A stretch of 41,820 nucleotides of DNA from Nostoc sp. DedSLP01. GTDB taxonomy: Bacteria; Cyanobacteriota; Cyanobacteriia; Cyanobacteriales; Nostocaceae. Within the stretch, counting starts at the first letter, position 1, and each line of letters begins with the position of its first letter. Below the pieces are notes generated by a model. The model made no database searches and had not been told where the DNA came from. It saw only the letters and a list, made by a program, of their open reading frames with translations. This document shows positions 9,783-40,291 of this stretch, in pieces. Position numbers and translations under genes: made by a program. Where the stretch lies: positions 1-41,820 of the forward strand of contig JAVRCJ020000053.1 of NCBI GenBank assembly GCA_034530875.2, given 5' to 3'.

Positions 9783-12700
9783 ATGGCAGATAACAATCTC
9801 TCAATCTTCAACTCAATATTACCAACTACAGCAACAGAAATCATCACTGATTACGACACATCAACAACTACAGCATCTCTTTTACCCAGTTACATAAATG
9901 TCACCATCACTAATGGCGGACAACTGAATGGAGTCTATGACGCTTGGTGTGTTAATAGTACCGTTGCAATTAGTAGAGGTACTTATAATCAAGCTAGTGT
10001 ATATTCCACCTACGGCGACATACCCGCTGGTATCCTTTATGCAGGTTCACAGACAACCAATTCGCCTGCGGCACAATACCTGAATCAACTTAAGCAAATC
10101 AACTGGTTGATAAATAACGTTACAGAAGCAAGTAACCTAGTCAACGGCAAATATCGGTACAATAATGTTGACTACACTTGGGGTGATGTACAGCTAGCTA
10201 TCTGGAAACTGCTAGGAGAAACACCTGTATTAAATAACGTAGACTACGACTCATTGGAAGTTTATAGTCAGCAGAAAGCAGATACGTTAGTGAGTTTTGC
10301 TGTAACCAATGGCACTAACTTTGTACCAGTGGCAGGGCAAGATTTTGGAGTAATTGTTAAAAGTGCTAACCTGCAACCGATTTTGATGGAAGTCAAGACA
10401 GCAGGTATTGGAGATTTTGTTTGGCATGACTTAAATGCCAATGGGGTTCAAGAGGCTAATGAAGAAGGAATAGATGGTGTAACAGTTACGTTACTTGATG
10501 GCAAGGGTAATGTTCTTGGCACCACTCTTACTGGAGACAACCCCTACACAACACAAATTGAGAAGGGCTGGTATCAGTTTGGACCGCTACTGCCCAGTAC
10601 CTATCAGGTGAAATTTAGCTTACCAACAGGCTTTAATACAGTCAGTCCTTACCTGCAAGGCAACACATCTCTAGATTCCAATGCTGACTTCCGCAATAAT
10701 TTGACCTCCGCACCTATTACCTTAATTGGTGGAGAGGTTAACAGAACTATTGATGCAGGGTTCTACAAAACAGCATCTTTAGGAGACTTCGTATTCAATG
10801 ATGCCAACAACAACGGCATTCAAGATGTAACAGAAGCAGGGGTAGCAGGGGTAAAAGTAGAATTAATCAACCCAGCCAATGGTAGTGTCATCGTGACAAC
10901 TACTACAGATGCAAATGGTGGTTACAGCTTTAGCGGCTTAACCCCTGGAAATTATCAAGTTAAATTTACATCGCCAACAGGTTACAGCTTCAGCACAGCA
11001 AATGTAGGAGATGACAGCAAAGATAGCGATGCCGACACTACAACAGGTTTAACCCAAAAAGTCACCCTCACATCAGGCGAATTTAACGGTACATTAGATG
11101 CTGGGTTAGTACAACTAGCGAGCTTAGGTAACTTTGTCTTTGAAGACAAAAACGCCAACGGTATTCAAGATGCAGGTGAGATAGGTATAGGCAATGCCAC
11201 AGTTAACCTGTTGGATACAGCAGGTAATGTGATTACCACCACCACCACAGACGGTAATGGACTCTACTCCTTCAGCAACTTACAACCAGGAGATTACAAA
11301 GTTCAATTTGTACAACCCAATGGCTTTAATGGTGTTAGTCCCGTCAATATCGGCAGTAATGATGCGATTGACAGTAATGGACTGATTACCGATGTAATTA
11401 ACCTTTCTCCAGGGGAGAATGATACAACAATCGATTCAGGGTTCTACAAAACAGCATCCTTGGGAGACTTTGTATTCAATGATGCCAACAACAACGGCAT
11501 TCAAGATGCAGGAGAAGCAGGGGTAGCAGGAGTAACAGTACAATTAATCAACCCCGTTGACGGTAGTGTTATCAGTACAACCACCACAAATGCAAATGGT
11601 GGTTATAGCTTTAGCGGCTTAACCCCCGGAGATTATCAAGTCAAATTTACATCTCCAACAGGTTACAGCTTCAGCACAGCAAATGTAGGAGACGACATCA
11701 AAGATAGCGATGCCGACTGCACAACTGGCTTAACTCAAAAAGTCACCCTCACATCAGGAGAATTTAACGGCACATTAGATGCTGGGTTAGTACAACTAGC
11801 TAGCTTAGGAGATAAAGTTTGGTTAGACAAAAACGCCAACGGCATCCAAGATGCAGGTGAAACGGGAGTAAGTGGTGTAACTGTTACCTTAACTAGTGGC
11901 GGTTCAGATGGCATCATCAACGGCATTGGCGATACCACCATCACCACAATTACCAATGCTAATGGCAACTACAACTTCGCTGGACTAACACCAGGTCAAC
12001 AATATCAAGTCGGGTTCTCTAATTTGCCTGCTGGATATCAATTTACTCAAGCTAACATAGGTGCTAATGATGCTGTAGATTCCGATGCTAATGCCAGTAC
12101 TGGCAAAACTCAGATTGTTACCCTGGCTTCTGGGGAAAACAACCTGACTTTAGATGCAGGAATTTATCAAAATGCCGGCGACCTGTCAATTACCAAAACC
12201 GATGGTTTGACAACTGTTATCCCCGGACAACAAATTACCTACACCATCGTAGCTAAAAATAATGGTCTGATTACTGTTACCAATGCCTTGGTGAGTGATA
12301 TCATACCCAGCAATTTGACCAATATTGCTTGGACTAGCTTAGCCACTGATGGTGCAACGGACAATCAAACTAGTGGAACAGGCAACATCAACGATTACGT
12401 CACCTTAGCAGCCGGTAGCAGTATCACCTATACGGTGAATGCAACTGTAGCCGCTAACCCGCTTTCTTCCTATACCATTCCCACTACCATTAGCTTGACA
12501 AGTAGCGGTTCGAGCGATGGTAGTAAGGGCAACATTCGCACCTTCTCTGCTAATGGTGTTTCCGTCAACGCCAGTGCTTTCAGTAGTACCAGCACGGGAA
12601 TCTGGAATACCGCTGCTCTGGGTATCTATGGCAGTTGGGGTTTAGGTGTAATTGATGGCACTGAAGATGGTAATAATGGAAGCCATCGCGTCGATAATTC

Positions 12701-15176
12701 CGGTCTTAATAACTACGTTTTGCTAGAATTCTCTGAGTCGGTGGTTATTAACAAAGCTGCATTAGCTTACGTTGATGGTGGGGACAGTGATATCTCTATC
12801 TGGGTTGGTAACTTCAACAATCCTTACAGCAATCACCTTACCTTAAATAGTTCGGTTCTCAATAGCTTCGGCTTTACCGAATTCAACAACGGTGGTAGCA
12901 CCGATCGCACGGCAGATATCAATGCGAATAACATTGTAGGTAACGCTGTGGTAATTGCCGCTAAAATCGGCGACACCGACGATAGCTTTAAGCTCAAATC
13001 TCTTGATATCCTCAAAGCAACGACTCAAATCAGTGGCTCTCTTACTAATACTGCTACAATTACAGGCCCCACTGGGTTCACTGATACCAACACCAGCAAC
13101 AACAGCGCCACCGACACAGACACGATTATTGCTGCTTCTACTGTTAAAATAGGCGATCGCGTTTGGTACGATGTCGATGGAGATGGCGTTCAAGAAGCAG
13201 GTGAAGCAGGAGTTTCTGGTGTAGCTGTTAAGCTGTTTAACCAAGCAGGTACTCAAATTGGGACAACGACCACCGATACCAATGGTCTTTACCAATTCAA
13301 CGTCAACGCCAACAGCAGCTACAGCGTTCAATTCGTTCAACCCACTGGGTTCGATGGATTTACCACCGCCAATATGGGAAGCGATGCGGTTGATAGTGAT
13401 GTTGTTAATGCCAACGGCACAACGGCTCAATTCTCTGTCGGTACAACTGATAACCTGACAATTGATGCAGGACTTATTAAAAACATCGGCGACCTGTCAA
13501 TTACCAAAACCGATGGTTTGACAACTGTTACCCCTGGACAGAAGATTACCTACACCATTGTCGCTAAAAATAATGGTCTGATGACTGCTACCAATGCCTT
13601 GGTGAGCGATATTATGCCAACGAATCTCACCGATGTGACTTGGACTAGTGTCGCTACCGGAGGAGCTAAAGACAATCAAATCAGTGGAACAGGCAACATC
13701 AACGATTACGTAACCTTGACAGCAGGTAGTAGTATCACTTATACCGTAAACGGTACGGTAGCTAGTAACCCCGTCTCTGGTTCTACAGGTAGTCTCATCA
13801 CATTTGACCTCGCTACCAATCCTAGTAGTGCGCTGGATGGAACGGATGGAAATACTCGGACGTTTACAAAGGATGGTATTACTGTTACAGCCCGCGCCTT
13901 TAGCCGCGTTGATGGGACAAATGGAGCTTGGAGTAATGCTTATCTGGGTAGCTATTCTGGCGGTGGTTTAGGTGTTACCGATAGCAGTGAAGGAAATGGA
14001 AGTGGAACTCATCGCGTTGATAACGTTGGAGGGCGAGATAACTACGTCCTATTCCAATTCTCCGAATCTGTTATTTTAGACCGCGCCTATCTGCAATACG
14101 TCATCAATGACAGTGATATCTCAGTATGGATTGGTAACTTTAACAACAACAATACCATCACGACTTTAAACGACTCAATTCTTAACGGCTTTGGGTTCAA
14201 CGAAGTTAACGAAACCAATCTCACAAGCGATCGCTGGGCAGATGTGAATGCAGGTAAATATGCGGGTAACACCATCATCATCGCCGCTTCTGCGGTAGAC
14301 GCAACTCCCGAAGATGAGTTCAAGATCCGCTATCTGGATATTCTTAAACCTACTCCCGCTTCTTTAGTCAACACTGCTACAATTACAGGCCCAACTGGTT
14401 TCACTGACACCAACACCAGCAACAACAGTGCCACCGATACTGACACTATTCTCTCTGCTTCCACCCCATCAGCCCCTGGTGTACGTACTCCCGGCTTCTG
14501 GCAGAACACAACCTGGCAAACCTTCTGGGACGGTATTCAAGGCAACGAACCATCACAAAAAACAGAGTTCAACTTCGCAGACGGCGATCTTCTGTTCGCA
14601 CCTTACACTAATTCTGCACAACCTGGAAAAGTTCTCGATCCAGTAACCGGACAATATGAAATTGGTCTACTAGTCGGCGATTACAACCGCAATGGTAAAA
14701 CTGATGCAGGTGAAGATACTCTCTTCTATTCTCGTAAACAGGCACTCCAGATTGTTGATGCCGCCCAACACCCGAACGGAGATAAGCGTTACGATCTTGG
14801 TCGCTCTTTAGTTGCTGGTTGGTTGAATTACCTCGCTGGCAACCCCATTGACACCGCCAATACAACTGATAAAGATGCTCGATACTACATTAACGAAGGC
14901 ATCAATTGGTTGCAAGCCATAACTCCAGACGAAAATGGCGATAAGAAGGGCGATGGCGCATTGAACAGTATGACTGGTAGCAGTGTTAATAGCCCTCTTG
15001 CTGATACTTACTGGAATCAAGGCATTTCGAGTGCTTCCAGCTTGCCAAATCCCTACAGTTCCAACACCAATGTTCTTTATGGATTAGAGGCTGGTAGTGT
15101 AATTAATTCCAATCTAGATAAGTACAACAACGGTTTGGGTCTTGCAGATCGTGTTTACTACGGAGGAAACGCATAA
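9783..15176 (+). CDS. Large surface adhesin: N-terminal thioester-like domain, 6 SdrD B-like repeats, 2 DUF11 domains with inserted domains, unknown C-terminal domain
   Basis: Repeats ASLGDFV.xDxNxNG.QD.GE...YxFxxLxPGxYxVxF...DSDAD...DAG; DUF11 motifs DLSITKTD...ITYTI...N.G and LTNTATI...NNSATDT; N-terminal AWCV / VQLAIW / LQPIL. ATG 9783 is preferred over 9681, but the start is uncertain. Confidence 0.9.
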   Translation: MADNNLSIFNSILPTTATEIITDYDTSTTTASLLPSYINVTITNGGQLNGVYDAWCVNSTVAISRGTYNQASVYSTYGDIPAGILYAGSQTTNSPAAQYLNQLKQINWLINNVTEASNLVNGKYRYNNVDYTWGDVQLAIWKLLGETPVLNNVDYDSLEVYSQQKADTLVSFAVTNGTNFVPVAGQDFGVIVKSANLQPILMEVKTAGIGDFVWHDLNANGVQEANEEGIDGVTVTLLDGKGNVLGTTLTGDNPYTTQIEKGWYQFGPLLPSTYQVKFSLPTGFNTVSPYLQGNTSLDSNADFRNNLTSAPITLIGGEVNRTIDAGFYKTASLGDFVFNDANNNGIQDVTEAGVAGVKVELINPANGSVIVTTTTDANGGYSFSGLTPGNYQVKFTSPTGYSFSTANVGDDSKDSDADTTTGLTQKVTLTSGEFNGTLDAGLVQLASLGNFVFEDKNANGIQDAGEIGIGNATVNLLDTAGNVITTTTTDGNGLYSFSNLQPGDYKVQFVQPNGFNGVSPVNIGSNDAIDSNGLITDVINLSPGENDTTIDSGFYKTASLGDFVFNDANNNGIQDAGEAGVAGVTVQLINPVDGSVISTTTTNANGGYSFSGLTPGDYQVKFTSPTGYSFSTANVGDDIKDSDADCTTGLTQKVTLTSGEFNGTLDAGLVQLASLGDKVWLDKNANGIQDAGETGVSGVTVTLTSGGSDGIINGIGDTTITTITNANGNYNFAGLTPGQQYQVGFSNLPAGYQFTQANIGANDAVDSDANASTGKTQIVTLASGENNLTLDAGIYQNAGDLSITKTDGLTTVIPGQQITYTIVAKNNGLITVTNALVSDIIPSNLTNIAWTSLATDGATDNQTSGTGNINDYVTLAAGSSITYTVNATVAANPLSSYTIPTTISLTSSGSSDGSKGNIRTFSANGVSVNASAFSSTSTGIWNTAALGIYGSWGLGVIDGTEDGNNGSHRVDNSGLNNYVLLEFSESVVINKAALAYVDGGDSDISIWVGNFNNPYSNHLTLNSSVLNSFGFTEFNNGGSTDRTADINANNIVGNAVVIAAKIGDTDDSFKLKSLDILKATTQISGSLTNTATITGPTGFTDTNTSNNSATDTDTIIAASTVKIGDRVWYDVDGDGVQEAGEAGVSGVAVKLFNQAGTQIGTTTTDTNGLYQFNVNANSSYSVQFVQPTGFDGFTTANMGSDAVDSDVVNANGTTAQFSVGTTDNLTIDAGLIKNIGDLSITKTDGLTTVTPGQKITYTIVAKNNGLMTATNALVSDIMPTNLTDVTWTSVATGGAKDNQISGTGNINDYVTLTAGSSITYTVNGTVASNPVSGSTGSLITFDLATNPSSALDGTDGNTRTFTKDGITVTARAFSRVDGTNGAWSNAYLGSYSGGGLGVTDSSEGNGSGTHRVDNVGGRDNYVLFQFSESVILDRAYLQYVINDSDISVWIGNFNNNNTITTLNDSILNGFGFNEVNETNLTSDRWADVNAGKYAGNTIIIAASAVDATPEDEFKIRYLDILKPTPASLVNTATITGPTGFTDTNTSNNSATDTDTILSASTPSAPGVRTPGFWQNTTWQTFWDGIQGNEPSQKTEFNFADGDLLFAPYTNSAQPGKVLDPVTGQYEIGLLVGDYNRNGKTDAGEDTLFYSRKQALQIVDAAQHPNGDKRYDLGRSLVAGWLNYLAGNPIDTANTTDKDARYYINEGINWLQAITPDENGDKKGDGALNSMTGSSVNSPLADTYWNQGISSASSLPNPYSSNTNVLYGLEAGSVINSNLDKYNNGLGLADRVYYGGNA
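10756..11860 (+). repeat. Recent internal duplication in the adhesin (10756-11179 vs 11437-11860, offset 681 bp)
   Basis: Near-identical nucleotide blocks, both starting cagggttctacaaaacagcatc and ending caagatgcaggtga. Confidence 0.85.
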
Positions 15177-21400: not shown

Positions 21401-24400
21401 GGTGCTTCCCATACTCTGTTGTTATCTTCGGAATTAACCGCAAACATCAAAACCCTCTGCCAAAAAGAAGGGGTCACTTTATTTATGACTCTATTGGCAG
21501 CATTTAAAGTATTACTTTCTCGCTACAGTGGACAAGAAGATATAATTGTGGGAACTCCCATCGTGGGACGAAATCGCACAGAAATTGAAAATTTAATTGG
21601 GTTTTTTGTCAACACTTTGGCTTTGCGGAGCGATTTGAGTGGAGATCCTAGTTTCCGAGAATTACTAAATCGCGTTCGACAAGTTACTTTAGACGCTTAT
21701 ACTCATCAAGATTTACCTTTTCAAAAGCTAGTAGAAGAACTCAAACTTGCAAAAAGTGTCAGTTATAATCCGGTATTTCAAGTTTGGTTTAACATGGTTA
21801 CCTTGGTTCATAATTCTCTCAAACTTAATGATTTAATAGTCGAACCAATTTCTATTATTGAAACCACTTCTAAGTTTGATTTGAGTCTCTATGTAGGAGA
21901 AGAAAATAATCAAATTCATTTGCGATTTGTTTACAATACGGTTCTCTTCAATGTAGATACAATTCAATGGATGGCAACGCATTTCCAGAAATTGCTAGAA
22001 AGAATTTCTACTCATCCAGAAAAAACAATCTCTAGTTTCTCGATTTTAACTGAAACGGAGCGTTATGAATTAACACATCAGCGTCATCAAGTTAGTCCTA
22101 CTAATTCATTTATAGAATTTCCAAAACAAGAAATTGAACAATCTATACCATCGCGATTTGAGCAGCAAGTAGCAAAATACCCTCATCATATTGCTGTCAA
22201 AACTCAAAATTATCAATGGACTTATAAAGAGTTAAATACTCAAGCGTGGAGGATAGCTCAAGCACTTCTTGAGGAAAATAACGAGCAAGAGGGTAAAATT
22301 GCCTTGTTATTTGACCATGATGCACCAATGATAGCTACAATATTGGGAGTCCTAAAAGCAGGTAAAACTTATATTCCTCTTGACCCCAAATATCCCCAAG
22401 ATAGGGTTTTATATATTCTCGAAGATTCCCTTGCTCAAGTGGTTTTAACTAATCACAAAAATTTGAGTTATGCTCAACAATTAGTTCAGGATAAATTGCC
22501 TGTTATTAATATTGACGATATTCAGATTAATGATTCGTTTTTAGAAATTAACCAAGAAATATCACTAGATAATATTGCCTATATTCTTTATACTTCTGGT
22601 TCGACAGGAAAACCCAAAGGAGTTATCCAAAATCACCGCAATGTCTTACATTTCATTAGAAACTATACTAATAATCTTCATATTTCATCAGAAGACAAAT
22701 TAAGTTTATTTGCATCTTATAGTTTCGATGCAGCAATTATTGATATTTTTTCGGCTCTTTTGAATGGTGCTACTCTGTATCCGTTTGATATCAAATCAGA
22801 AGGTTTAGCTCACTTAGCTGAGTGGTTAGAAGTAGAGAAAATTACTATCTATCATTCGACTCCTACGGTTTATCGACATTTTATTGAGATATTAAATTCC
22901 AAAGAATCAATTGCCAAAAAGCAGCTTTCTCAGGTGCGTTTAGTGGTATTGGGAGGAGAACAAGTTGTCAAAAATGATGTTGAATTATATCAAAAATTAT
23001 TTGCAGATGAATGTATTTTTGTGAATGGTTTAGGCTCAACAGAATCTTCTTTCAATCTTCAATATTTAATTGATAAAAACACCAAAATTACTCAGAGGAA
23101 TGTTCCAGCAGGTTATGCTTTTGAAGACACAGAAATCATTCTGCTTAATCGTGAATGTAAGCCAACCGATATCTATGGAGAAATAGCGATTAGAAGTGCT
23201 TATATTTCCCTTGGATATTGGCAGAAACCAGAATTAACAAAAGCAGCATTTTTAGAAGATCCGGAGGGTGGAAATAAAAGAATTTACCGCACTGGAGACT
23301 TGGGACGCTTGCGAGCTAATGGTGTCATAGAATGTTTGGGTAGAAAAGATTTTCAAGTTAAAATTCGTGGTTTTCGTATTGAATTAGGAGAAATTGAAGC
23401 TTTATTAAACCAACATCCTCAAATTAAAGAAACTGTTGTCATTGCTAGAGAATCTATGAATGGAGAGAAGCTATTAGTAGCTTATATTATTCCTAGAAAA
23501 GGTGAGAATATTATCAATGGAATAAAACAGTACTTGGAGCAAAAATTACCTGATTATATGCTTCCTGCTGCTTTTGTTGTACTTGATGTTATGCCTTTAA
23601 CTCCTAATGGTAAAATTAATCGTCTTGCGCTTCCCATTCCTGATTTTAACAAGTTGAAATCGGCAGAATATACTGCCCCATCTGATGATTTAGAACTAAA
23701 ACTTACTAAAATTTGGGAAAATGTGTTGGGTGTTCATCCTCTTGGGTTGAATGATAACTTTTTTGATGTAGGAGGACATTCTCTACTAGCTATAAGGCTA
23801 GTTACTCAAATTGAAAATATATTAGGTAAAAATATTACTCCAAATACTTTTTTTCAAGCTCCTACAATTAAAAAGCTAGCTAATATACTTCGTCAAAAAG
23901 AATTTTCAACTTCTAATTCTTCATTAGTTCCGATTCAACCTCATGGCTCCAAAAGACCTTTTTTCTATATACATACTATTTACGGAAGTTTGATATATAG
24001 CCTAAATTTGTTGTCTAAATTAGATGCAGATCAACCAGTTTATGGATTACAAGCAAAGGGTTTAGATGGTATAGAATCTCCCCATACCTGTGTTGAGGAT
24101 ATGGCATCTCATTATATTAAAGAAATAAAAACTGTTCAGCCACACGGGCCATATTTTCTGGGGGGATGGTGTGCAGGAGGTGTGATAGCTTATGAAATGG
24201 CACAACAACTTTACGCTCAAGGAGAGACTGTTGAATTACTAACTATTTTTGATGCCTATCCTCCGAAAATGATACCTTCAGCAAATAAAGGTGTGAATTC
24301 TGTATCTCCTATCAAAATAAAGTTATCTCGTATCCATGAATCTGTATTGAGTTTAAAGGATATGATTAAGCGCAGCTGTAGCTCTTTTGCTAATTTGACA

Positions 24401-27360: not shown

Positions 27361-28929
27361 ATGGCGATTATTAGTGGAAGCATAACCCAAGCGGATGACA
27401 GAATTGTAGCTGATGCAGCTAACGATAGAATCGATGCTCTAGCGGGTAACGATACGGTTAATGGTGGCGGGGGTAACGATGTTCTCATCGGCAACTTTGG
27501 CAATGATTCTCTATTTGGAGGACTTGGTAACGACTCCCTCGATGGTGGATTCAACAGAGATACCCTTGATGGTGGTGCGGGTAACGACACTCTCAACGGC
27601 GGCGACGACAATGACACCCTTTCTGGCGGGACTGGAAATAATCTCGTTAATGGCGGTGCGGGTAATGATATTCTCATCGCTCAAAACGGCAACTTTCCTG
27701 GTGTCGGCGATGTTGGCGATACTTTGATAGGCGGTGCTGGTAGTGATGAATTGCGGGTTGAGGGAGCCTCAAATTATTTCTTGAGTAGCGATCGCCTGTT
27801 TGTCGGTAATTTAGTTCATCAGTTTTCTGAGGTTGAGCGTGTTAGGCTCACTGGTACTTCCGGTAATGACACGATTAATGCATCTCAAGCTTTGTTGTCA
27901 GATCGAACCTTTCTCTTTGGCGGTGCGGGTAATGACACCATCACAGGTAGTCGCGGACTCGACCAGATCAATGGTGGTGATGGTAATGACAGCATAGTAG
28001 GAGGAACAGGGTTTAACTTCCTGCGCGGTAATGATGGTAATGACACCCTGATAGGTGGCAATGACGACAATAATTTTAATGGTGGAGCCGGGAATGACTT
28101 AATGCAAGGTGGAACCGGGAGGGATAGTTTTTCTGATAGTGCCTTTGATGGAGCTGGCGACGATCGATATATTGGTGGAGCAGGTGAAGACTTCTTATTT
28201 ATAGAGGGCGACAATAACTTTGAGTTGTTCTCGTTTGTTAACGAGCCAAACAAAAGCCAACTCAAAGGCGGTAAGTTTGGCCCCTTTGCCAATCTTGATG
28301 ACTCGGCCACGGGTACTGATACCCTCGAAGGAATTGAAAACGTCCAAATTAATGGAGGCGCTAGCAGCAATCGCATAGATGCTAGTCGCGCTAGTCAAAA
28401 CGTCAGTGTTACTATTCGTGGTTTCGATGGCAATGATATTCTGCTAGGTGGTAGCGGTAACGATGACATATCTGGTGGATTTGGTAGCGATCGCGTTGAA
28501 GGTGGCGCTGGCAACGATCGCTTAGATGGCGATCTTGGCAATGATACTCTTGTAGGAGGCAAGGGTAATGATACCCTCCTTGGTAGTGGTGGCTTTAATA
28601 GCGGAGAGATAGATGTTTTAACAGGAGGAAATTTCTTCCAAGGAGTTCAATCTGTTGATACATTCAACCTCAATAGTTCCTATCGGCAAGCTGGTCATGC
28701 CATTATCACAGATTTCTCTTTACTAGATGGAGACAAGCTGAATCTGCGCGGTTCTGCTAGCGATTACACATTTGTCCAGCAAAACTTTACTCCTCGTTCT
28801 TTGACGAATGACTCATCTATCTTAGATACCGTTGTCTACTTCGGAGCGGCTGCTTTCGGCGACGTTATTACTGTCCTTGAGGATGTCAGTATAACAGTGG
28901 TAACTCCTGGGGTTACATTTACGTCCTAA
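27361..28929 (+). CDS. RTX / hemolysin-type calcium-binding repeat protein
   Basis: More than 20 GGxGxDxLx nonapeptides; no signal peptide; C-terminal IITDFS...GDKLNL segment typical of T1SS substrates. Confidence 0.92.
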
Positions 28930-29008: not shown

Positions 29009-29345
29009 GCTAGGTCTACCTCAAGGATTCTTATCGAGTCGCCTCGGTTGCGACTTTGAGCGAACACCTACTGGTTGTGGCAATGTTTGGTCATCGCCAG
29101 CCGTTGATTTTAAAACCCCTATTCCGCACTTCAAGTTGAACTACAAAGAGATTACAGTCAAGAGAAAAGAAAAACAATCAGGAGAATTAAGAAAAGAACA
29201 TTGAACTAATGTGCGCCGTGAAGAGAAATAATCAAACATACAATATTGGCTATGTAATTATTCGTAATTATTTCTAGGAAGGTTTCTCATTTATCCTAAT
29301 TAAGGGGTTGTAATTCACTGAAGTGCTGCTTATTTGAGAGGTGCA

Positions 29346-32096
29346 ATGTCTGGAATGACTCTATGGGGATGGGGTTGGCACAGGAAGTTGGCAGTTGGAA
29401 GTTGGTTGATAAGTAGTGCGATCGCCCCTGTAAATTGCGTCCTTGCCCAAATTACCCCGGATAACACCTTACCTAATAATTCCAGTGTCATCAGGGAGGG
29501 TAACACTTTTAATATCGTTGGAGGAACGCAAGCAGGAGGTAATTTATTCCATAGTTTTGGCGAGTTTTCTGTGCCTACTGGCAACAGTGCTGACTTTAAT
29601 AATGCTGTAGATATTCAAAACATTATTAGTCGAGTAACAGGTGGTTCAGCTTCTAATATTGATGGATTAATCAAGACCAACGGTACAGCTAACTTGTTTT
29701 TAATAAATCCCAACGGCATTATTTTTGGTCAGAGTGCGCGGTTGGATCTTGGTGGTTCGTTCATTGGTAGTACTGCAAGTAGCTTGAAATTTCGGGATGG
29801 TACAGAGTTTAGTGCAACTATGCCTCCAACTGTGCCTTTGCTGACTATCAGCGTTCCCGTTGGATTGCAATATGGGAAGAATCCGGCAAGCATCCTCAAT
29901 CAATCCCAAGCAATTAATAATAGCGGTGAAACCGTTGGTTTACAGGTACATTCAGGTAAGACTTTGGCGCTTGTGGGAGGTGATGTGGAGCTAAATGGCG
30001 GAAATTTGCAGGCTCTTGGCGGGAGAGTGGAATTAGGAGGACTAGCAGCAGCAGGAACAGTAGAATTGAACTTTGATAATAATCTACAGTTAAGTTTTCC
30101 TGCTAATGTAGCACTAACAGATATATTGTTGACCAATGCTTCTGCAATCAATGTAGTTGCAGAAAATAGAGGGAGTATTGCTATTAATGCTCGGAATTTA
30201 GATATTGTAAAGGAGAGTTCCTTAGTTGCTGGTATAGATACAAATTTAGGGGAGATTGGCTCCAAAGCAGGTGATATTACACTTAATGCTACAGGTGCGA
30301 TTAAATTTGAAGAACGATCGCAAGTTATTAACAGTGTTAATTTTAACTCTATAGGTAATGGGGGAAATATCATCATCCAAAGTGAATCAATCTTGTTTCG
30401 CGATGGTTCTACGTTATGGTCTTTGACTAACGGCAGAGGAAATACAGGTGATGTAATACTAAAAGCCAAAGATTCGGTAACATTTGAAGATAGTAGTGGT
30501 ACATTTACTTTTGTCAATAATGATGCTGTTGGTAATGGACCAAATATTATTATCCAAGCTCAGTCGTTCTCTATGCTCAATGGCTCTGCATTTGTTTCCA
30601 CTTCAGATGGCGAAGGAAATTCAGGTAATGTAACTATTGATGTCAACGGAGCTGTAACTTTTGCTGGAACGTCAATCAGTGGCTACCCTAGTAGTGTGTT
30701 TACCAACTCCAGTAGCATTGGCAAAGGCGGAAATATAACTATTCGGGCAAGTTCAGTTTCCTTGCATGATGGCGCTAATTTGGATACTAGTACTAGTGGT
30801 TCAGAACAAGCTGGGGATATAAAGATTGAAACTAGTGGTGCTGTCTCGTTGACAGGAGTAAATGGTGTGGGACTTGTTAGTTTTATAAGAAGTCAGGTTT
30901 ATTATAATGGCGTTGGCTCTGGTGGAAATATTAATATCAAAGCTAGTTCACTATCTCTGCAAAATGGCACTCAAATTAACTCCAACACGCTAGCTCAAGG
31001 AAATGCTGGTAATATAATACTGGAAATTAACGGCGCTGTATCTTTAGCAGGAGTCGATCGAGAAGGGAATGCTGGTGGTATATTCAGCAGTGTAGAACCT
31101 AATGCCATAGGTAATGGTGGTAATATTAACATTCAAGCTACTTCACTTTCAGTCACAGAGGGTGCTAGATTATCTGCCAGTACTGTCGGACAAGGAAATG
31201 CTGGCAATATCAATGTTAATATTGACGATGCAATCGCCTTTGACAGCATAAATAGCGTTAGCCCCAGTGGAGCATTTACCAGCGTAGAGTCGGGAGCAGC
31301 TGGTAACGCAGGCAACATTAATTTAATAACCCGTTCAATTCGTTTAGATAACCAAGCAGCTATTTCAGCAATTACGACATCAGGTAATGGTGGCGATATT
31401 AACTTGCAGGTGCAAGATATATTGCTATTACGCCGTAACAGTAAAATTTCTACCTCAGCAGGTACAGTTAGGCAAGGAGGAAATGGTGGAAACATTACCA
31501 TTAATGCTCCCAATGGTTTTATCATTGCTGTTCCTCAAGAAAATAGTGACATTACTGCTAATGCTTTCATAGGCAAAGGTGGGAGAGTAGATATTCAAGC
31601 TTTTGGTATCTTTAGTATTCAGCCTCGTCAAAGTCCAACTTTCGGAAATGACATAACTGCTAGTTCAGAATTAGGCATAGACGGCACTATAGAACTTAAT
31701 ACACCTGATGTTGACCCTAGCAGAGGATTAGTTGAGCTGCCAACAAATCCAGTTGATGCTTCCAATCAAATTGCTCAGGGCTGTACTCCCAGAGGCAAGC
31801 AAACTAGTAGTTTTGTTGCCACAGGACGCGGCGGATTGCCGGATAGTCCTAACGAGATGCTAGGCGATGATGCAATTGAGGTAAATTTGGTTACTCTCGA
31901 TCCGAAAGCAAATCGCTCTATTCCAACTATTTCTACGCTCCCACCTGCTCCCGTGCCAGCTCGTATAGTAGAAGCTCAGGGGTTTGTAATAGGTAACAAT
32001 GGCGAGGTAATCCTCACAGCCTCTGTCCCTACCGCCACACCCAATCATCCTGGGTTGACTCCACAATTGTGTCATGTATCACAACAAAGTCAGTAG
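29346..32096 (+). CDS. Filamentous haemagglutinin N-terminal domain protein (TpsA-type exoprotein)
   Basis: Signal peptide ending VLA-QITPD; TPS motifs NLFHSF, NIISRVTGG.SNIDG, NLFLINPNGIIFG; GNxGNIxI beta-helix repeats; C-terminal C...SSFVATGRGGLP...IVEAQG. ATG 29346 follows GAGAGG. Confidence 0.93.
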   Translation: MSGMTLWGWGWHRKLAVGSWLISSAIAPVNCVLAQITPDNTLPNNSSVIREGNTFNIVGGTQAGGNLFHSFGEFSVPTGNSADFNNAVDIQNIISRVTGGSASNIDGLIKTNGTANLFLINPNGIIFGQSARLDLGGSFIGSTASSLKFRDGTEFSATMPPTVPLLTISVPVGLQYGKNPASILNQSQAINNSGETVGLQVHSGKTLALVGGDVELNGGNLQALGGRVELGGLAAAGTVELNFDNNLQLSFPANVALTDILLTNASAINVVAENRGSIAINARNLDIVKESSLVAGIDTNLGEIGSKAGDITLNATGAIKFEERSQVINSVNFNSIGNGGNIIIQSESILFRDGSTLWSLTNGRGNTGDVILKAKDSVTFEDSSGTFTFVNNDAVGNGPNIIIQAQSFSMLNGSAFVSTSDGEGNSGNVTIDVNGAVTFAGTSISGYPSSVFTNSSSIGKGGNITIRASSVSLHDGANLDTSTSGSEQAGDIKIETSGAVSLTGVNGVGLVSFIRSQVYYNGVGSGGNINIKASSLSLQNGTQINSNTLAQGNAGNIILEINGAVSLAGVDREGNAGGIFSSVEPNAIGNGGNINIQATSLSVTEGARLSASTVGQGNAGNINVNIDDAIAFDSINSVSPSGAFTSVESGAAGNAGNINLITRSIRLDNQAAISAITTSGNGGDINLQVQDILLLRRNSKISTSAGTVRQGGNGGNITINAPNGFIIAVPQENSDITANAFIGKGGRVDIQAFGIFSIQPRQSPTFGNDITASSELGIDGTIELNTPDVDPSRGLVELPTNPVDASNQIAQGCTPRGKQTSSFVATGRGGLPDSPNEMLGDDAIEVNLVTLDPKANRSIPTISTLPPAPVPARIVEAQGFVIGNNGEVILTASVPTATPNHPGLTPQLCHVSQQSQ

Positions 32097-32170
32097 ATGC
32101 GTCACCAACAAAGGCGATCGCATTCCTTTGTTCCTTTGACAAATCTGCAAAGTGCATTGAGGGCAAAAAC

Positions 32171-34810
32171 GTGAAAAGAAAACGATCGTTATTTTTCCGT
32201 TTCCGCCGATTGTTGAAGTATTTGCATATAGGAGTGCATCATTGTGGAGTACTGATACTTTTGGCAATATTCTTAGGTACAAGCGTATTGCCCCCCACTT
32301 TCGCCTTGATGGCTACCCAAAACTCCGTTGTTCAATCTGTATCTAATGCTCAAGAGTTATTTCAACAGGGCAGTAAGTTATATGAAGCAGAACAGTTTCA
32401 TCAGGCATCTTTAATCTTTGAACAAGCATTAATTGCTTTCCAAGCTCAAAGGAATAAACTCATGCAAGCTATGACCTTGAGCAATCTTTCCTTGACATAC
32501 CAGCAATTAGGACAGCGGTCAAAAGCAACTCAAGCGATCGCCCAAAGTCTAAACTTATTACAGACTGGGCTAGTCTCTGAAGAAAGAGGTTCGCTAACGC
32601 AAATCCTAGCCCAAGCTTTAGATATTCAAGGTCGGCTACAGTTAGCACAGGGAAAAGCTGAATCAGCTCTAATTTCTTGGCAACAAGCAGCCGCAATTTA
32701 TGCAAAAACAAGTGACAACATTGGGTTAATCCGCAGTCAAATTAACTCTGCTCAAGCTTTGCAAACTTTAGGAAATTATCGTCAAGCCCAGAAGATATTA
32801 ACTCAAATTAACCAAAACCTGCAAAACCAACCAGACTCAACTCTCAAAGCTACAGGATTGCGTAGCCTTGGCAATGTACTGCGAGTCGTCGGGGATTTAG
32901 AACAATCTCGAAAGATTTTGCAGCAGAGTTTAGAAGTGGCAGAGCGAATGCAATTGCAATCTCCTCAAGCTATAAGTGAAACTTGGTTAAGTTTAGGTAA
33001 TACCGCTACAGCCCAACAGGATATCCCAGCAGCTTTAAATTACTATCAACAAGCTGCTACGTCTACTTCGTCAACTACACGTATCCAAGCTAATTTAAAT
33101 CAACTTCGTCTATTGTTGGATAACAATCAATTGGGTGCTGCTCAAGCATTGATATCTAAAATCCAAGCTCAAATCCCTGACTTACCTATCAGTCGCAAGG
33201 CGGTTTACGCTCGAATTAACTTTGCCCAGAGTTTAATAAAACTAAAAGCAAAAGGTGTAGATGGACATGAATTGAAAGAAATAGCCCAGCTTTTAGCTAC
33301 AGCAGTCCAACAAGCAAGAGATTTACAAGACCAGCGTTCAGTTGCTTATGCTCTAGGAAATCTTGGAGGATTATACGAACAAACCCAACAATTTTATAGC
33401 GCCCAAGACCTCACGCAGCAAGCCCTAGTTATATCTCAAGCTATTAACGTGCCAGATATTACCTATCGTTGGCAATGGCAGTTAGGACGTTTACTCAAAG
33501 CTAGGGGAGATATAAAAGGCGCGATCGCAGCTTACACCGAATCAGTTAAAATCCTTCAATCCCTCCGCAACGATTTAGTTGCAATTAATCCAGAGGTACA
33601 GTTTTCTTTCCGAGATGAAGTCGAGCCAATCTATCGGCAGTTGGTCAATTTGCTGTTGCAATCACAAACAGACTTCCAACCCAGCCAAAACAACTTAGTG
33701 CAAGCCCGCGCCGTCATTGAATCCCTACAACTAGCTGAACTGGACAACTTCTTTCGGGTAGCTTGCTTAGAAGGAAAACCCGTACAAATTGACTCTGTTA
33801 TCGATCGACAAGATCCTAGTGCGGCAGTTATCTATCCAATAATCTTGGCAGACAGACTAGAAGTTATTCTCAAGTTACCTCAACAACCGTTGCACCATTA
33901 TCAAACCAGCATTAGTGCAACTGAAGTAGAAAAAATTTTAGACCAATTACGCCAAGAACTGATCGAACCTTATACATTGCAACAGACTCAAGCATTATCC
34001 AAACAGGTATATAATTGGTTGCTACAACCAGCAGAGAAATACTTAGCTAAATCCCAAATCAAAACTTTAGTATTTGTTTTAGATGGTTCGTTACGAAACA
34101 TTCCTATGGCTGTCCTTTACGATGGTCAACAGTATCTGATTCAGAAATATGCGATCGCTTTGACTCCAGGGTTACAGTTATTAGCGCCCAGGTCTTTATC
34201 AGAGCAACAAATAAAAGCTTTGACTGCCGGAATAACTGAAGCGCGCCAGGGTTTTTCTGCCCTCAGCAATGTGGCACTAGAGTTGAATGAAATTAAGTCT
34301 GAGATGCCTACCAAAGTGCTACTCAATCAAAAATTTACCAGCAAGGCTTTTCAACAAGAAATAAACTCTATTCTTTTCCCTGTAGTACATCTAGCAACTC
34401 ACGGTCAGTTTAGTTCCAAAGCTGATGAGACGTTTATTCTTACCTGGGATGGTCGGATTAACGTTAATCAACTCGATACCTTACTACGTACTAGAGAGAC
34501 ACAAAGACCAAATGCGATCGAATTACTTGTTCTCAGCGCCTGCCAAACTGCTGCTGGGGATAAGCGAGCTACTTTGGGGCTTGCTGGCATAGCTGTGCGG
34601 GCGGGGGCACGTAGTACTCTTGCTTCTTTATGGAATTTGGATGATGAATCGACAGCAGAACTTATGAGTCAGTTCTACCGAGAATTAACTTCTAAAAAGC
34701 TGACTAAAGCCGAAGCACTCCGCCAAGCTCAACTAGCTTTGTTAAAAAACCCTAAATACCAACATCCATTGTTTTGGGCCGCTTACGTCCTAGTGGGAAA
34801 TTGGTTATAA
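32171..34810 (+). CDS. TPR + CHAT (caspase HetF-associated) domain protein with an N-terminal hydrophobic/signal segment
   Basis: TPR repeats; VLDGSLRNIPM, HLATHGQF (catalytic His), LLVLSACQTAAG (catalytic Cys), ASLW, AEALRQAQL, HPLFWAAYVLVGNW. Start uncertain (GTG 32171 or 32069). Confidence 0.92.
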   Translation: MKRKRSLFFRFRRLLKYLHIGVHHCGVLILLAIFLGTSVLPPTFALMATQNSVVQSVSNAQELFQQGSKLYEAEQFHQASLIFEQALIAFQAQRNKLMQAMTLSNLSLTYQQLGQRSKATQAIAQSLNLLQTGLVSEERGSLTQILAQALDIQGRLQLAQGKAESALISWQQAAAIYAKTSDNIGLIRSQINSAQALQTLGNYRQAQKILTQINQNLQNQPDSTLKATGLRSLGNVLRVVGDLEQSRKILQQSLEVAERMQLQSPQAISETWLSLGNTATAQQDIPAALNYYQQAATSTSSTTRIQANLNQLRLLLDNNQLGAAQALISKIQAQIPDLPISRKAVYARINFAQSLIKLKAKGVDGHELKEIAQLLATAVQQARDLQDQRSVAYALGNLGGLYEQTQQFYSAQDLTQQALVISQAINVPDITYRWQWQLGRLLKARGDIKGAIAAYTESVKILQSLRNDLVAINPEVQFSFRDEVEPIYRQLVNLLLQSQTDFQPSQNNLVQARAVIESLQLAELDNFFRVACLEGKPVQIDSVIDRQDPSAAVIYPIILADRLEVILKLPQQPLHHYQTSISATEVEKILDQLRQELIEPYTLQQTQALSKQVYNWLLQPAEKYLAKSQIKTLVFVLDGSLRNIPMAVLYDGQQYLIQKYAIALTPGLQLLAPRSLSEQQIKALTAGITEARQGFSALSNVALELNEIKSEMPTKVLLNQKFTSKAFQQEINSILFPVVHLATHGQFSSKADETFILTWDGRINVNQLDTLLRTRETQRPNAIELLVLSACQTAAGDKRATLGLAGIAVRAGARSTLASLWNLDDESTAELMSQFYRELTSKKLTKAEALRQAQLALLKNPKYQHPLFWAAYVLVGNWL

Positions 34811-34916
34811 TATCATGTCTGGTTAATTAGTTATGATTACCAGAACTGTGCAAAAACCAGGAAACCCTCTTTGCCCCTGCTGTCTTAATGATAAGTCTTT
34901 AACCGAACACGATATA
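34810..34916. mobile_element. MITE with TA ends between convergent genes
   Basis: TATCATGTCTGGTTAA versus reverse complement of right end TATCGTGTTCGGTTAA (13/16 match). Confidence 0.65.
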
Positions 34917-34917
34917 A

Positions 34918-35679
34918 CTATCGGCAGCAATTTACTATCGGTTCTGAAGCAATGTCATTCAGACCAACTGATTGCAAAAGGTTAGCCCAATTATTACGTT
35001 TGGGATCTAGGTAACGAAGTTGAGCTGAAGCAGCCACTAACTCGTACCAAATACCATGAGTAGCATAAAGATTAACGCGCTGCTGTGGTGTTGCTTTCTC
35101 TAACTGATTTTTCAAAATGGAGTTGGGTTCGATCCTTTCGATCCAGCCATCAACAAAAATAGGTGGTTGTTGTGGATAGCAGTAAATACTAAAGTACCAA
35201 TGATAGCGATCGCCAATTTTTAATGAAGAAGCTGTTGATGGCAAAGAGATGCCGACCGCCCCTGGTGTTCCAGATAGTGAAACAGGGCTTTGGTATACAG
35301 TTTGTCCCACTTCATTCTGTAACACGAACTCTGCGGCAGCTTTAGTCGTGTAAGGAACATAGAACCAGAAAGTTGGATGGGAAATAGTCGTTAGTCCAAA
35401 TACTAGTTCCGCATTTAGAGAGCTATAAACCGGAACTAACGCTGTCAATCGCTTTTCTTTAATTGTAGGAAGCTGCTTATTCATGTTCTCACAACCGCGC
35501 TTTCCTCCTGCTGTGCGATTACCAGGTGCGCCAATGTCATCTGGGGGAGGAGGTGCGTTAAAAATCTCTGTTTTGGAAATTTGAGATTTTACAGGTTGTA
35601 TTGGTACTAGTACCAAGCAAAGTGATGCTAAAGCGATCGCCCAGGCAAGCTTAATACTAGTTTGTAATTTGTAATTCAT
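34918..35679 (-). CDS. DUF928 domain protein (exported)
   Basis: Signal peptide; GAPGNRTAGGKRGC, LTALVP, TTISHPTFWFYVPY, YHWYFSIYC, VDGWIERI, YATHGIWYE, W.NLLQSVGL. Confidence 0.9.
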   Translation of the reverse strand: MNYKLQTSIKLAWAIALASLCLVLVPIQPVKSQISKTEIFNAPPPPDDIGAPGNRTAGGKRGCENMNKQLPTIKEKRLTALVPVYSSLNAELVFGLTTISHPTFWFYVPYTTKAAAEFVLQNEVGQTVYQSPVSLSGTPGAVGISLPSTASSLKIGDRYHWYFSIYCYPQQPPIFVDGWIERIEPNSILKNQLEKATPQQRVNLYATHGIWYELVAASAQLRYLDPKRNNWANLLQSVGLNDIASEPIVNCCR

Positions 35680-35854
35680 AATTCGTAGTTTTGAAAAATT
35701 ATATTTAATCTAAATTTTCTGTCAAACCTGTAGCCTTTTTTGCATAATTACTATCAGATGGAAAACTAAGTTCATTTCAACAAATACTCAAATTTATAAC
35801 ATCTTTGTTATTTGTTATTAGTGACTGTATAGTTTTACAGTTCTAGGAGAAATA

Positions 35855-35976
35855 TAAGTACCTAAGCAAAATTAATTGCACATAATAATTGAAAAACAAA
35901 ACCTCCGTACTCCTTACCTGTTCCCTGTTAAGAGTTCCCTGTCTTAAATATAAAATTTATTTTGCACGACTACTTA
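35855..35976. mobile_element. MITE with TA ends containing STRR heptamers
   Basis: TAAGTACCTAAGCAAAATTAATT versus reverse complement of right end TAAGTAGTCGTGCAAAATAAATT; internal cctgttc cctgtta agagttc cctgtct. Confidence 0.65.
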
Positions 35977-36184
35977 ATTAGCCGATTAACAAATTCGGTG
36001 GGTTTAAGTCCCCCAGTTCTATAATCGGTCAATTTTGTGGTGGGGCCCTTACAAAATCCAGATGGTCGGAAATCTCCGCTCTGGTTTTGCGCTAAATCCC
36101 CATTACAAAACTGTACTTCCGACTTCCGATTTCTTTAATAAAGGCTATTTATCTCATCAAAAGCAGTAAAAGTATTTTCGGAAA

Positions 36185-38599
36185 TTATTCGCTTTTATTT
36201 GGTTTTCCGAATGAAGAATTACGAATTACTATTACTACACTAGTGCCAGTTACGACTAAGGTAATAGTGGCAGGAATTAACGGTATCCAAATACCTTGAA
36301 GGAGCATAACAAAGCTGATTGCAGATATAACCACAACGACAAAAATTCCCACTAGTCCTAAAAGCAAGAAGTTACGAATCCGCCATGCCACTATTCCTCC
36401 AAAAACAGACCAGTAAAAAATCCACAAAACCTCACCCCAAACAGGCCAAATCCATAATAGAGTTCGCCCATCTAAAACTGCACTCAGAATTTGACTCACC
36501 ATTTGAGCATGAACAATAACTCCTGGCATTTCTTGCTTTTGGTCAGTATGGTCACTAGTGTAAGGCGTAGAAAAATAATCACCAGCATTTTGAGTAGTAA
36601 TGCCAATGAGTACGATCCGATTCTTTACTTGATTGGGATCTATATCACCCTTGAGTGCGTCTGTGAGTGTAATTTGCTCTATAGCCTTTAAAGGAGAATT
36701 AAAGGAACGGTAATTCAGCAATACTTGATAGCCCCTATCATCTAATCGTTGATAACCTCCTATATGCGCTCGTAATCGTTTAAACACAACTTTGCCGATT
36801 TGCAACTCCTTGTTTTTGGTGTACTGGGCAGAAATGCCCTCTGTTTTTAAGTAATGAAATGCCAATTGAGCACTGAAGGCGTAGGGCGTAGTACAAGGGG
36901 AGGGGGCGCTTGGTTTCATCGCAATCAAATGACGGCGGAGAATAGCATCGCTGTCCTTGACAAAATCGCTAAAGCCTTGACGTTCTGTAGGAATTTCTGG
37001 AGGAGATGAAACACCTGGTTCATGAATCTGAGGTTGGCTGACTCTGCAAATAGCAATGAAGTTGTCCTTGCGCTGCATCCAAGTCACTAGAGATTTTTCG
37101 CTGGGGTCTACGGGGAAATCGTGATAAATATCTAAGCCGATGGCTCGTACTTTGAACTGTTCGAGTTTTTGCACAAGTAAAGCAAGTGCGCGATCCGATA
37201 GCGAGCCTTTTCTTTGTTGTTGTTCTGGTAGCTTAAAATCATCTTCAGCGATCCCTACTACCAAAAGGCGCGGATCTGGTTTTTCGCTAGGGCGCAATCG
37301 TAGCAGTCGATCAAAAGCAGCTAGTTCCGCGGCTTGTAATAGTCCCAAATGCCGCACTCCCATTATCAAGGTTGTGACAATCACAGCTAACATCAGCACA
37401 ATTTGAAAACGCTGCTTTCTAGGCAATATTTGAGGCGGTTTCTCGATGACTGGTTTTAAGCTCGCTAACGCTTTCTCAACCCAACTTTGATTAAAAACAG
37501 CAGCATAAATGCGGTTATAAACTTTTAACAAACCTTGTTGCTTAACTACTAATCCTGATAACCGCAATTCCATTTGCTCAGAAGTATTATACGCTGCGAT
37601 TTGACCTATTTGTAAAATTTGTTGGTAAAGCTCTAGCAACTTCTGAATCTGTTGTTCGTCTCTGGAAATGCCATTGCTATCAATGTATTGGCAAAAAAGG
37701 CGATCGCGAATCGTTCTCAGATGCTCTGGTTCATCTTGGGATTCCCAGTTTTCAATGACTTGAGAACGTACTAGTTTTTCAACATACTCTGCTTCACCAT
37801 TTGTTGAAATCATAGAGGAAGAAGTGATAACTAACTGGCAAAGCTTCTGAGTTAGAAAAGGTTGACCACCACTCCAGGCTAATATTTCTTTTAACACTAT
37901 GTCAGGGTTACCAATTCCCACTAATCCCTTAGCTAATGGTTGAGCTTCAGACAATTGAAAGCCGTTTAGTTCTATAGCTCGACCAATGTTAAAGGGTGTC
38001 TGGTGTTTGTCTTGAATTAAATCGTAGGGAGTAGTCACTCCTAGCAGTACAAAACTCAGGCGCTGATAAGCGCCATTGTCGGCTCGTTTGTTATAGCAAC
38101 CTCGAATTAAAGCCAAAAAATCATCTTTGAAGTCCAGTTTGAGAATGCTATCAATTTCGTCTACAAAAATCACAATGTTTTGAGACACTTCCACTAGCAG
38201 CACTGACTCAATAAACTCACTCAAGCATTGTACTGGTGGAAGTCCAGAGCGTTCGCTCCACCAACTTAGTACTTTAAACTTAGGGATGAAACTACGTGCC
38301 AGCCTACGCATTACGCCCAAATACCATTGCGATGGGGTAATGTCTTGACTTCCAATCGCCGTAATGTCGATGACACCACAGGCAATACCTTCTGCTTGCA
38401 ATTTATGCATTGTTTGCACTCGCAGGCTGGACTTGCCCATCTGTCGTGAATTAAAGACATAACAAAATTCCCCAGCCTTTAGCGCATCATAAAATTCTTT
38501 GTCGGCTTGGCGTTGCACATAGCTTGGAGCATTAATTTGTAAGCTCCCCCCAACTTGATATTTATAAGCCGAGTTTTCTGTTTTATTTGTTGGACGCAT
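36185..38599 (-). CDS. AAA-like (AAA_35) ATPase + CHASE2 sensor transmembrane protein
   Basis: YQVGGSL...SYVQRQAD, Walker A SRQMGKSS, Walker B IFVDEID; TM helix; CHASE2 motifs [42 protein letters not shown]; three C-terminal TM helices. Confidence 0.92.
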
Positions 38600-38638
38600 C
38601 CTAAGTTAAAGCTTTTAGCAACGTCTGTTAGTCACAAT

Positions 38639-40102: not shown

Positions 40103-40291
40103 TGCTCGGGATGAATAACAACAATTTGCATATTGAGCTACACTCCAGATTCTTAACTTTCCAGATTTTTTACCCAACAATATTTTAATGCTTGAAATTC
40201 AGGCAAGCTAAAAAAAGCGGATATTGATAATTTGCTAAAACTAGCGAGTATTTGCTCTGAGCTATCTAGAGAGTTAATAACTATTAATGAC

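Follow-up and report, generated by a model that had tools for sequence, protein, structure and literature searches.

The closest described systems are the thioester domains (TEDs) of Gram-positive surface proteins. The accessible text of Walden 2015 places TEDs "exclusively in Gram-positive bacteria" (PMC4450167), and those of Miller 2018 (PMC6194298), Monzon and Bateman 2022 (PMC9210967), the Bacillus pLS20 paper (PMC8092201), and a 2026 preprint (10.64898/2026.02.05.703941) keep them to Firmicutes and Actinobacteria; as far as these texts go, known TED targets are few. The TED of the pLS20 TIE protein serves contact between bacterial cells and not contact with an animal host, according to the accessible part of its description (PMC8092201). 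That protein differs from the one reported here in being class II, Gram-positive, and part of a conjugation operon, whereas no conjugation genes were seen at our locus. Proteins of the LapA/RTX type are fibrillar adhesins secreted by type I systems. In cyanobacteria, Anabaena has TolC-dependent adhesion proteins such as HesF, per the accessible text of PMC4390845. For nonribosomal peptide synthetases (NRPSs), the accessible text on ObiF ties a GXCXG-type cysteine thioesterase (TE) to transthioesterification and unusual release chemistry (PMC6668435). Literature searches on Gram-negative or cyanobacterial TEDs, on cyanobacterial SdrD proteins with NRPSs, and on VPEID-CTERM, covering main texts and few subscription papers, found nothing relevant.

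The present study examined a 41,820-nucleotide stretch of Nostoc sp. DedSLP01 DNA (hereafter the window), in which a gene for a predicted TED on a repeat stalk stands beside an NRPS gene (Table 1). We compared the domain with the class I TEDs of Cpa (2XI9, 4C0Z), CpTIE (5A0G), SfbI (5A0L), PnTIE (5A0N), and FNE (5DCQ), and with PF08341. It resembles them in predicted fold, in its length of ~200 aa, in having no class II insert, and in the order of Cys strand, QxxphiW helix, and Gln strand, and it shares with Gram-positive TIE proteins an N-terminal position on a repeat stalk with predicted isopeptide-type domains. Unlike the class I TEDs, to which it is 10-18% identical, it carries WC and DVQ motifs, and unlike the TIE proteins the window protein belongs to a diderm, has no Sec leader or sortase signal, and is encoded by an NRPS-linked gene; it falls outside the sortase-anchored TIE proteins. 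With LapA/RTX-type adhesins and HesF it shares large size, the absence of a leader, and a repeat-rich stalk with calcium-type loops, and it differs from type I fibrillar adhesins in having no RTX or known retention module and in bearing a TED, a domain that the accessible texts do not describe for them. The window NRPS resembles ObiF (PMC6668435) and SulM, as given in the accessible parts of their descriptions, in its cysteine nucleophile and GXCXG TE, and differs from them in the absence of recognisable beta-lactone or beta-lactam pathway genes, in its variable two- or three-residue product, and in the adjacent adhesin gene. On balance, we lean towards a probably type I-exported thioester stalk that would bond covalently to an amine, most plausibly one linked to the co-inherited neighbouring NRPS.

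Table 1. Positions of the TED-stalk gene, the neighbouring NRPS gene, and their features in the window.
Feature	Position	Strand	Remarks
TED-stalk gene	9783..15176	+	1,797-aa leaderless stalk protein; TED - 5 SdrD_B - DUF11(+insert) - SdrD_B - DUF11(+insert) - C-terminal module
Class I-type TED, predicted, residues 1-206	9783..10400	+	Model, fold searches, family Pfam matches
Cys56 (TGT), predicted thioester cysteine	9948..9950	+	WCVN
DVQLAIW helix motif (Gln137, Trp141)	10185..10205	+	Counterpart of TQxxphiW
Gln198 (CAA), predicted thioester glutamine	10374..10376	+	LQPIL; just before last strand
Five SdrD_B stalk repeats	10401..12176	+	DxNxNGxQ[DE] loop in each
DUF11/CLIPPER domain 1, inserted XDP1-like domain	12177..13139	+	Lys805, Asp839, Asn1089: predicted isopeptide triad
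Sixth SdrD_B repeat	13140..13484	+
DUF11/CLIPPER domain 2, inserted XDP1-like domain	13488..14459	+	Lys1242, Asp1276, Asn1530
Unnamed C-terminal module, 238 aa	14460..15173	+	TPGFW...LDxYNNG
NRPS, three modules, 3,123 aa	15425..24796	+	A-T-C-A-T-C-A-T-TE
NRPS thioesterase Cys2916, motif GWCAG	24170..24172	+	Cys replaces usual Ser

Fold and conservation of the N-terminal domain

The open frame extends upstream to 9681, and the start was placed at 9783 because the database protein has 1,797 aa and 11 of 12 matches span the whole query from that Met. The closest named relatives of the full protein are from Desmonostoc, Nostoc, and Calothrix (84-96% identity). Promoter and terminator scans gave a signal no better than chance. 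All six SdrD_B repeats are recognised by Pfam (E 2.8e-195), and the loops of the first five probably bind calcium, as judged from the motif. DUF11 is a proven isopeptide domain, renamed CLIPPER in the accessible text of PMC12617251; both copies here retain Lys, Asp, and Asn at equivalent positions, from which isopeptide bonds are predicted only, and the XDP1-like insert of the second scores 87 bits against NF041927, below the cut-off of 125.

A sequence-only reading of this DNA had proposed a Cys-Gln thioester domain from a cysteine, a DVQLAIW motif, and a glutamine lying in that order directly before the SdrD_B stalk. The three elements do stand so in the sequence; the interval it gave for DVQLAIW, 10188-10205, has the right end and spans VQLAIW only, the motif starting three nucleotides earlier. 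They depart from the canonical TED letters at two places: the residue before Cys56 is Trp and not [YFL], and the helix reads DVQ and not TQ. That reading made no mention of the co-inherited NRPS gene, the two DUF11/CLIPPER domains, or the conserved C-terminal module.

The proposed TED fold was borne out by structure prediction and fold searching, within the limits of a model. The model of residues 1-206, built from a 79-row alignment of the domain family, has a pLDDT of 86.9, and in a search against 48,161 chains its top eight matches were all TEDs (Z 7.4-10.1, rmsd 3.6-4.6, 138-176 residues aligned), the next match falling to Z 3.3. Among the eight were Cpa (Z 10.1, rmsd 4.3, 176 aligned) and CpTIE (Z 9.8, rmsd 3.6, 152 aligned). 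The best Foldseek matches were the TEDs of Cpa (E 3.7e-5) and SfbI (E 4.2e-5), with TM-scores to TEDs of only ~0.5 at 13-17% identity. In the model, Cys56 terminates strand 50-56, VQLAIW lies on helix 133-143, and the class II beta-sandwich insert is absent, the 206 residues matching class I chains from end to end; this match and the size indicate class I. All features assessable by sequence and fold are those of a class I TED, as which the modelled domain would work.

Profile evidence came from the family. As a single sequence the window domain matched nothing in Pfam, NCBIfam, or PDB chain sequences, and the 79-row profile matched no PDB chain; 58 of the 79 aligned family members nevertheless match PF08341 (TED) at E<=1, the best at 1.1e-5. 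A neighbouring Atlas cluster (score 0.92) has a TED annotated on 11% of its members, and NCBI names one cyanobacterial fragment (P0290) a "thioester domain-containing protein".

Published thioester pairs are Cys109-Gln261 in SfbI, Cys94-Gln247 in PnTIE, and Cys138-Gln267 in CpTIE (PMC4450167, accessible text). As an indirect register, the fold alignment sets model residue 206 against CpTIE 275, PnTIE 255, and SfbI 270, so that Gln198, if the last strand is ungapped, falls on CpTIE Gln267, PnTIE Gln247, and SfbI 262, one off Gln261. Through Cpa 583 the alignment puts Gln198 at Cpa 575, which we take to be its thioester Gln. Co-variation, a weak signal here (mean-field, 260 rows, effective 139), gave W55-E203 as the best inter-strand pair, at rank 52 of 12,188, and did not convincingly bring the two strands together.

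Conservation was counted in a genome scan seeded with the helix around Asn107, a segment without the Cys or the Gln. From the best 80 of 141 loci, 85 domains were counted in a 97-row alignment, the remaining 12 rows holding the query, a truncated domain, and five each of duplicates and further loci. The Cys is present in 84/85, the final Gln in 84/85, and both in 83/85, the exceptions being L051 (Arg) and L067 (Glu); the pair is thus kept in homologues, as the sequence-only reading required of a true TED. A profile search returned 2,004 clusters (50% identity) at E<=0.001, and in 164 domains from the best 150 of these we found the Cys in 161, Gln137 in 160, and Trp141 in 163, with W (113), Y (32), or F (15) before the Cys. 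Across the family, the Thr of the helix motif is swapped for Val or Ile. The final Gln occupies a single alignment column in only 117 of the 164 domains because a variable loop precedes it; the pattern Gln-x-hydrophobic-hydrophobic was found in 156/161 with a wide search window (Glu control 103) and in 142/161 with a narrower one (Glu 38), again in the best 150 clusters.

We consider it very likely that residues 1-206 form an internal Cys56-Gln198 thioester with loss of NH3. A TED-like fold with no working thioester, which would bind non-covalently or use Cys56 for other chemistry, is suggested by the divergent WC and DVQ motifs and by the few members that lack Cys or Gln (L051, L067, and P0136). 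Against it, Cys and Gln are near-invariant across bacteria and archaea at ~30% identity, and Cys56, as the sole Cys of the domain, has no disulfide partner; we regard this alternative as unlikely.

Record titles for the best 80 of 141 loci name cyanobacteria, Flavobacteriaceae, Bacteriovoracaceae, Planctomycetota, Chloroflexota, Acidobacteriota, and archaea, giving a family range in that set over cyanobacteria, Bacteroidota, Bdellovibrionota, Planctomycetota, Chloroflexota, and archaea including Asgard lineages. The cyanobacterial distribution is patchy: 15 of 401 genomes of the phylum and 32 of 251 of the family carry a TED, as do none of 13 other genomes of the same genus, and the present genome has a single copy. 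NCBI names two members (P0172, P0276) as Nostoc sp. PCC 7120 proteins, which places the family in a genetically tractable host. Elsewhere the domain is internal, tandem, on lipoproteins, or C-terminal. Archaeal members with intact Cys and Gln (L036, L046, L048, L054, L063, L075, L083, and L038) come from records of Promethearchaeota, Hodarchaeota, and Methanocella and have a mostly signal-like N-terminus. In Flavobacteriaceae the TED occurs on lipoprotein-like proteins (L040, L049, L050, L077, L079, L087, L090, and others), with tandem paralogue pairs at four loci. Two to five TEDs are spaced along a single chain in P0014, P0015, P0016, and L085, and the domain is internal in L012 and P0149.

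Export and orientation of the stalk protein

Export and anchoring signals were judged by a motif and hydropathy check. The sequence-only reading had reported no Sec signal, LPXTG, or PEP-CTERM, and we agree: the check found no hydrophobic segment (best 19-residue hydropathy 1.24) and no C-terminal LPXTG, PEP-CTERM, or RTX repeat. In 123/123 proteins, many of them fragments, no more than 15 residues separate the end of the C-terminal module from the terminus; 16 of these proteins also show a TED and five a hydrophobic N-terminal stretch. The model of the module is confident (pLDDT 88.5). The module matches no Pfam family, has a best Atlas score of 0.82, and in fold searches reached at most Z 3.9 with nothing under E 0.001 in Foldseek, which does not imply a new fold. 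It may serve as an export signal, an anchor, or a distal binding domain.

In relatives the module is replaced by RTX repeats (P0024, P0056) or a bluetail (L012), and NCBI names in the P0015 cluster combine "thioester domain-containing" with "type I secretion C-terminal target domain"; most of the 30 proteins scanned for tails had no named one. Six HlyD adaptors in the present genome score over the cut-off, and no transporter gene lies beside the TED-stalk gene. Given the RTX and type I tails of relatives, the HlyD adaptors, and the TolC-dependent adhesion proteins of Anabaena, the window protein is probably exported by a type I system, C-terminus first. The locus tags looked for in the main text of the PCC 7120 exoproteome paper were absent from it. 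Elsewhere in the window, a 522-aa RTX-repeat protein (27361-28929) is another likely type I substrate.

Type I-secreted adhesins that are retained have their N-terminus on the side of the cell, and a tip position for the TED therefore cannot be assumed; the domain may instead be a cell-side base or anchor. Alternatively, the TED would be a distal harpoon aimed at something foreign (a plant or fungal host, other cells, or a substrate), with the module as the anchor and the NRPS as a passenger or with a separate biofilm function. The harpoon would fit the constant C-terminal position of the module, the many TED relatives with no NRPS, an intact member (P0012) that NCBI names as from Trichormus azollae, a fern symbiont, and the domain order, which is that of Gram-positive TIE proteins: N-terminal TED, stalk, and C-terminal anchor (PMC4450167, accessible text). 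It is harder to reconcile with a C-terminal module that has no hydrophobic or known anchor motif and for which RTX-type tails substitute in relatives.

The neighbouring NRPS and the partner of the thioester

The NRPS gene starts 248 bp 3' of the TED-stalk gene, and its product lacks all but the first ~29 residues of the N-terminal half-condensation region that is typical of its NRPS family. Linkage was assessed in 251 genomes of the same taxonomic family, 32 of them with a TED, of which six were unjudgeable at contig ends and 26 assessable. An NRPS adjoins the TED gene or lies within 7 kb of it in 23/26. It is the adjacent gene in 22 genomes, downstream in 21 and divergent in one, a count that includes one case judged from a C-terminal piece on a second contig; among the remaining assessable genomes it lies 6.7 kb away in one and is absent nearby in three. 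The reverse test, a search of the 251 genomes with the half-condensation N-terminus, gave 13 matches at E<=3.7e-66, the next one falling to 5.6e-42. Every one of these 13 genomes carries a TED, against a base rate of 32/251; it lies directly upstream on the same contig in 11, the other two being split by contig ends.

Chance adjacency would be rare, since only 25 long open reading frames (ORFs) with both A and C domains occur among the ~7,800 genes of the present genome; the linkage counts overstate independence because the genomes are kin. No NRPS was found at 49 non-cyanobacterial TED loci or at 33 module-bearing loci that showed no TED in the stretch covered and had 2 kb or more of downstream sequence. 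Three supported TED clades, mutually ~30% identical, show the link in a quick tree whose backbone has no resolution and from which we claim no separate origin of the NRPS-linked clades. A fourth cyanobacterial clade has mostly members with no nearby NRPS. The two genes are divergent at L069, L028, L125, and L207. A single NRPS lineage for all loci was rejected, the internal C domains falling into at least two separate clades plus singletons. Cross-phylum transfer of the pair, raised by L028 with its title of Tabrizicola, was also rejected: seven phycobiliprotein matches make that genome (G622) look cyanobacterial and its label seem wrong, and TEDs were found in 3/301 genomes sampled from the family of Tabrizicola. 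The region upstream of the TED gene in L021, L023, L027, and L092 repeatedly holds an alpha/beta hydrolase gene and a divergent acyltransferase gene, possibly as plain synteny.

A functional link between the NRPS and the adhesin thus seems likely to us, and the gene linkage is the part most worth testing. That the linkage holds across ~30%-identical TED clades, in either orientation, and with NRPSs of more than one lineage also weighs against the distal harpoon with a passenger NRPS.

The A-domain codes of the window NRPS are DFWNIGMVHK, DAEDIGAITK (also read with Ala for Thr at position 9), and DAIHVGGFNK, of which the first presumably selects Thr and the second Arg or another basic residue. 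Predicted peptides differ among relatives, modules 1 and 3 varying and some having no basic residue, and one NRPS group is Val-like with a Ser TE. Among otherwise orthologous NRPSs (L211-L217, L219, and L221) the third-module code varies widely, and two of them carry an aberrant STSKTMSVSK code; this looks like diversifying module exchange. In the TE group of the window the motif is GWC[AV]G, and the Cys is present in 11/11 complete TEs of the three-clade-A/B type that were aligned, the window included; the other NRPS group has a Ser TE in 6/7. We found at the NRPS locus neither a starter acylation domain nor genes for tailoring enzymes or an exporter, and no exporter or display route for the peptide was found.

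The explanation that we favour would run as follows. Cys56 and Gln198 would form an internal thioester in the class I TED of the stalk protein; the protein would leave the cell by a type I system, C-terminus first; and the NRPS would work with the adhesin instead of being a mere fellow traveller. The NRPS would make a short unacylated peptide (Thr-Arg/basic-X), whose amine would attack at Gln198, and the TED would then be a self-anchor or a kin-specific glue and not a host harpoon. That the peptide is the partner of the TED is a tentative proposal, the likeliest single partner yet far from settled, and the distal harpoon with a passenger NRPS, itself doubtful, ranks close behind.

The NRPS might also cap or decorate the TED before export, for example by transfer from the cysteine TE, so that the peptide is displayed or the thioester silenced. 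Type I substrates cross the membrane unfolded, and the thioester would therefore form only outside, which counts against capping, as does the mostly Ser TE of the other NRPS group. Capping would agree with adjacent genes whose products are both cytoplasmic, with a locus that has no tailoring or export genes, and with the Cys common to all aligned TEs of the window's group, a motif linked in ObiF to transthioesterification (PMC6668435, accessible text). We judge it very unlikely.

The conserved NRPS neighbour offers a named candidate partner, which is usually missing from studies of TEDs, and a TED with a short defined peptide would, if the proposal is true, be a new covalent tagging pair.

A parallel on Rhodobacterales plasmids and other genes of the window

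On five Rhodobacterales plasmids (L223, L224, L225, L233, and L234) the TED lies at the extreme C-terminus of leaderless proteins in all five cases and retains Cys, Q-x-AIW, and Gln. The gene that follows encodes a 57-71-aa protein with a VPEID-CTERM-type tail (5/5): three of these mini-proteins score 29.5-30.6 bits, below the cut-off of 33, one is so annotated, and the fifth shows the motif by eye. Exosortase E comes next in 4/5. At L225, type I secretion genes lie just upstream.

In cyanobacteria and Rhodobacterales alike, the gene 3' of the TED gene would lead to a peptide that is very short and bears a free amine. It is possible, and we offer it only as a conjecture, that diderm TEDs are a self-assembly chemistry in which a giant protein, once secreted, takes hold of a tiny partner peptide specified by the next gene. 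The partner would be an NRPS di- or tripeptide in cyanobacteria and an exosortase-anchored mini-protein in Rhodobacterales, and the result would be a covalent surface anchor that needs no sortase, or a peptide "password", specific to the strain, for adhesion among kin. If true, this would give TEDs and NRPSs alike a new function.

The remainder of the window holds a known cyanobacterial set at 29334-40180, with genes for a filamentous-haemagglutinin-type (TPS) protein and for TPR-CHAT, DUF928, CHASE2, and AAA_35 proteins, followed at 40388-41729 by a DDE transposase divided between two overlapping frames.
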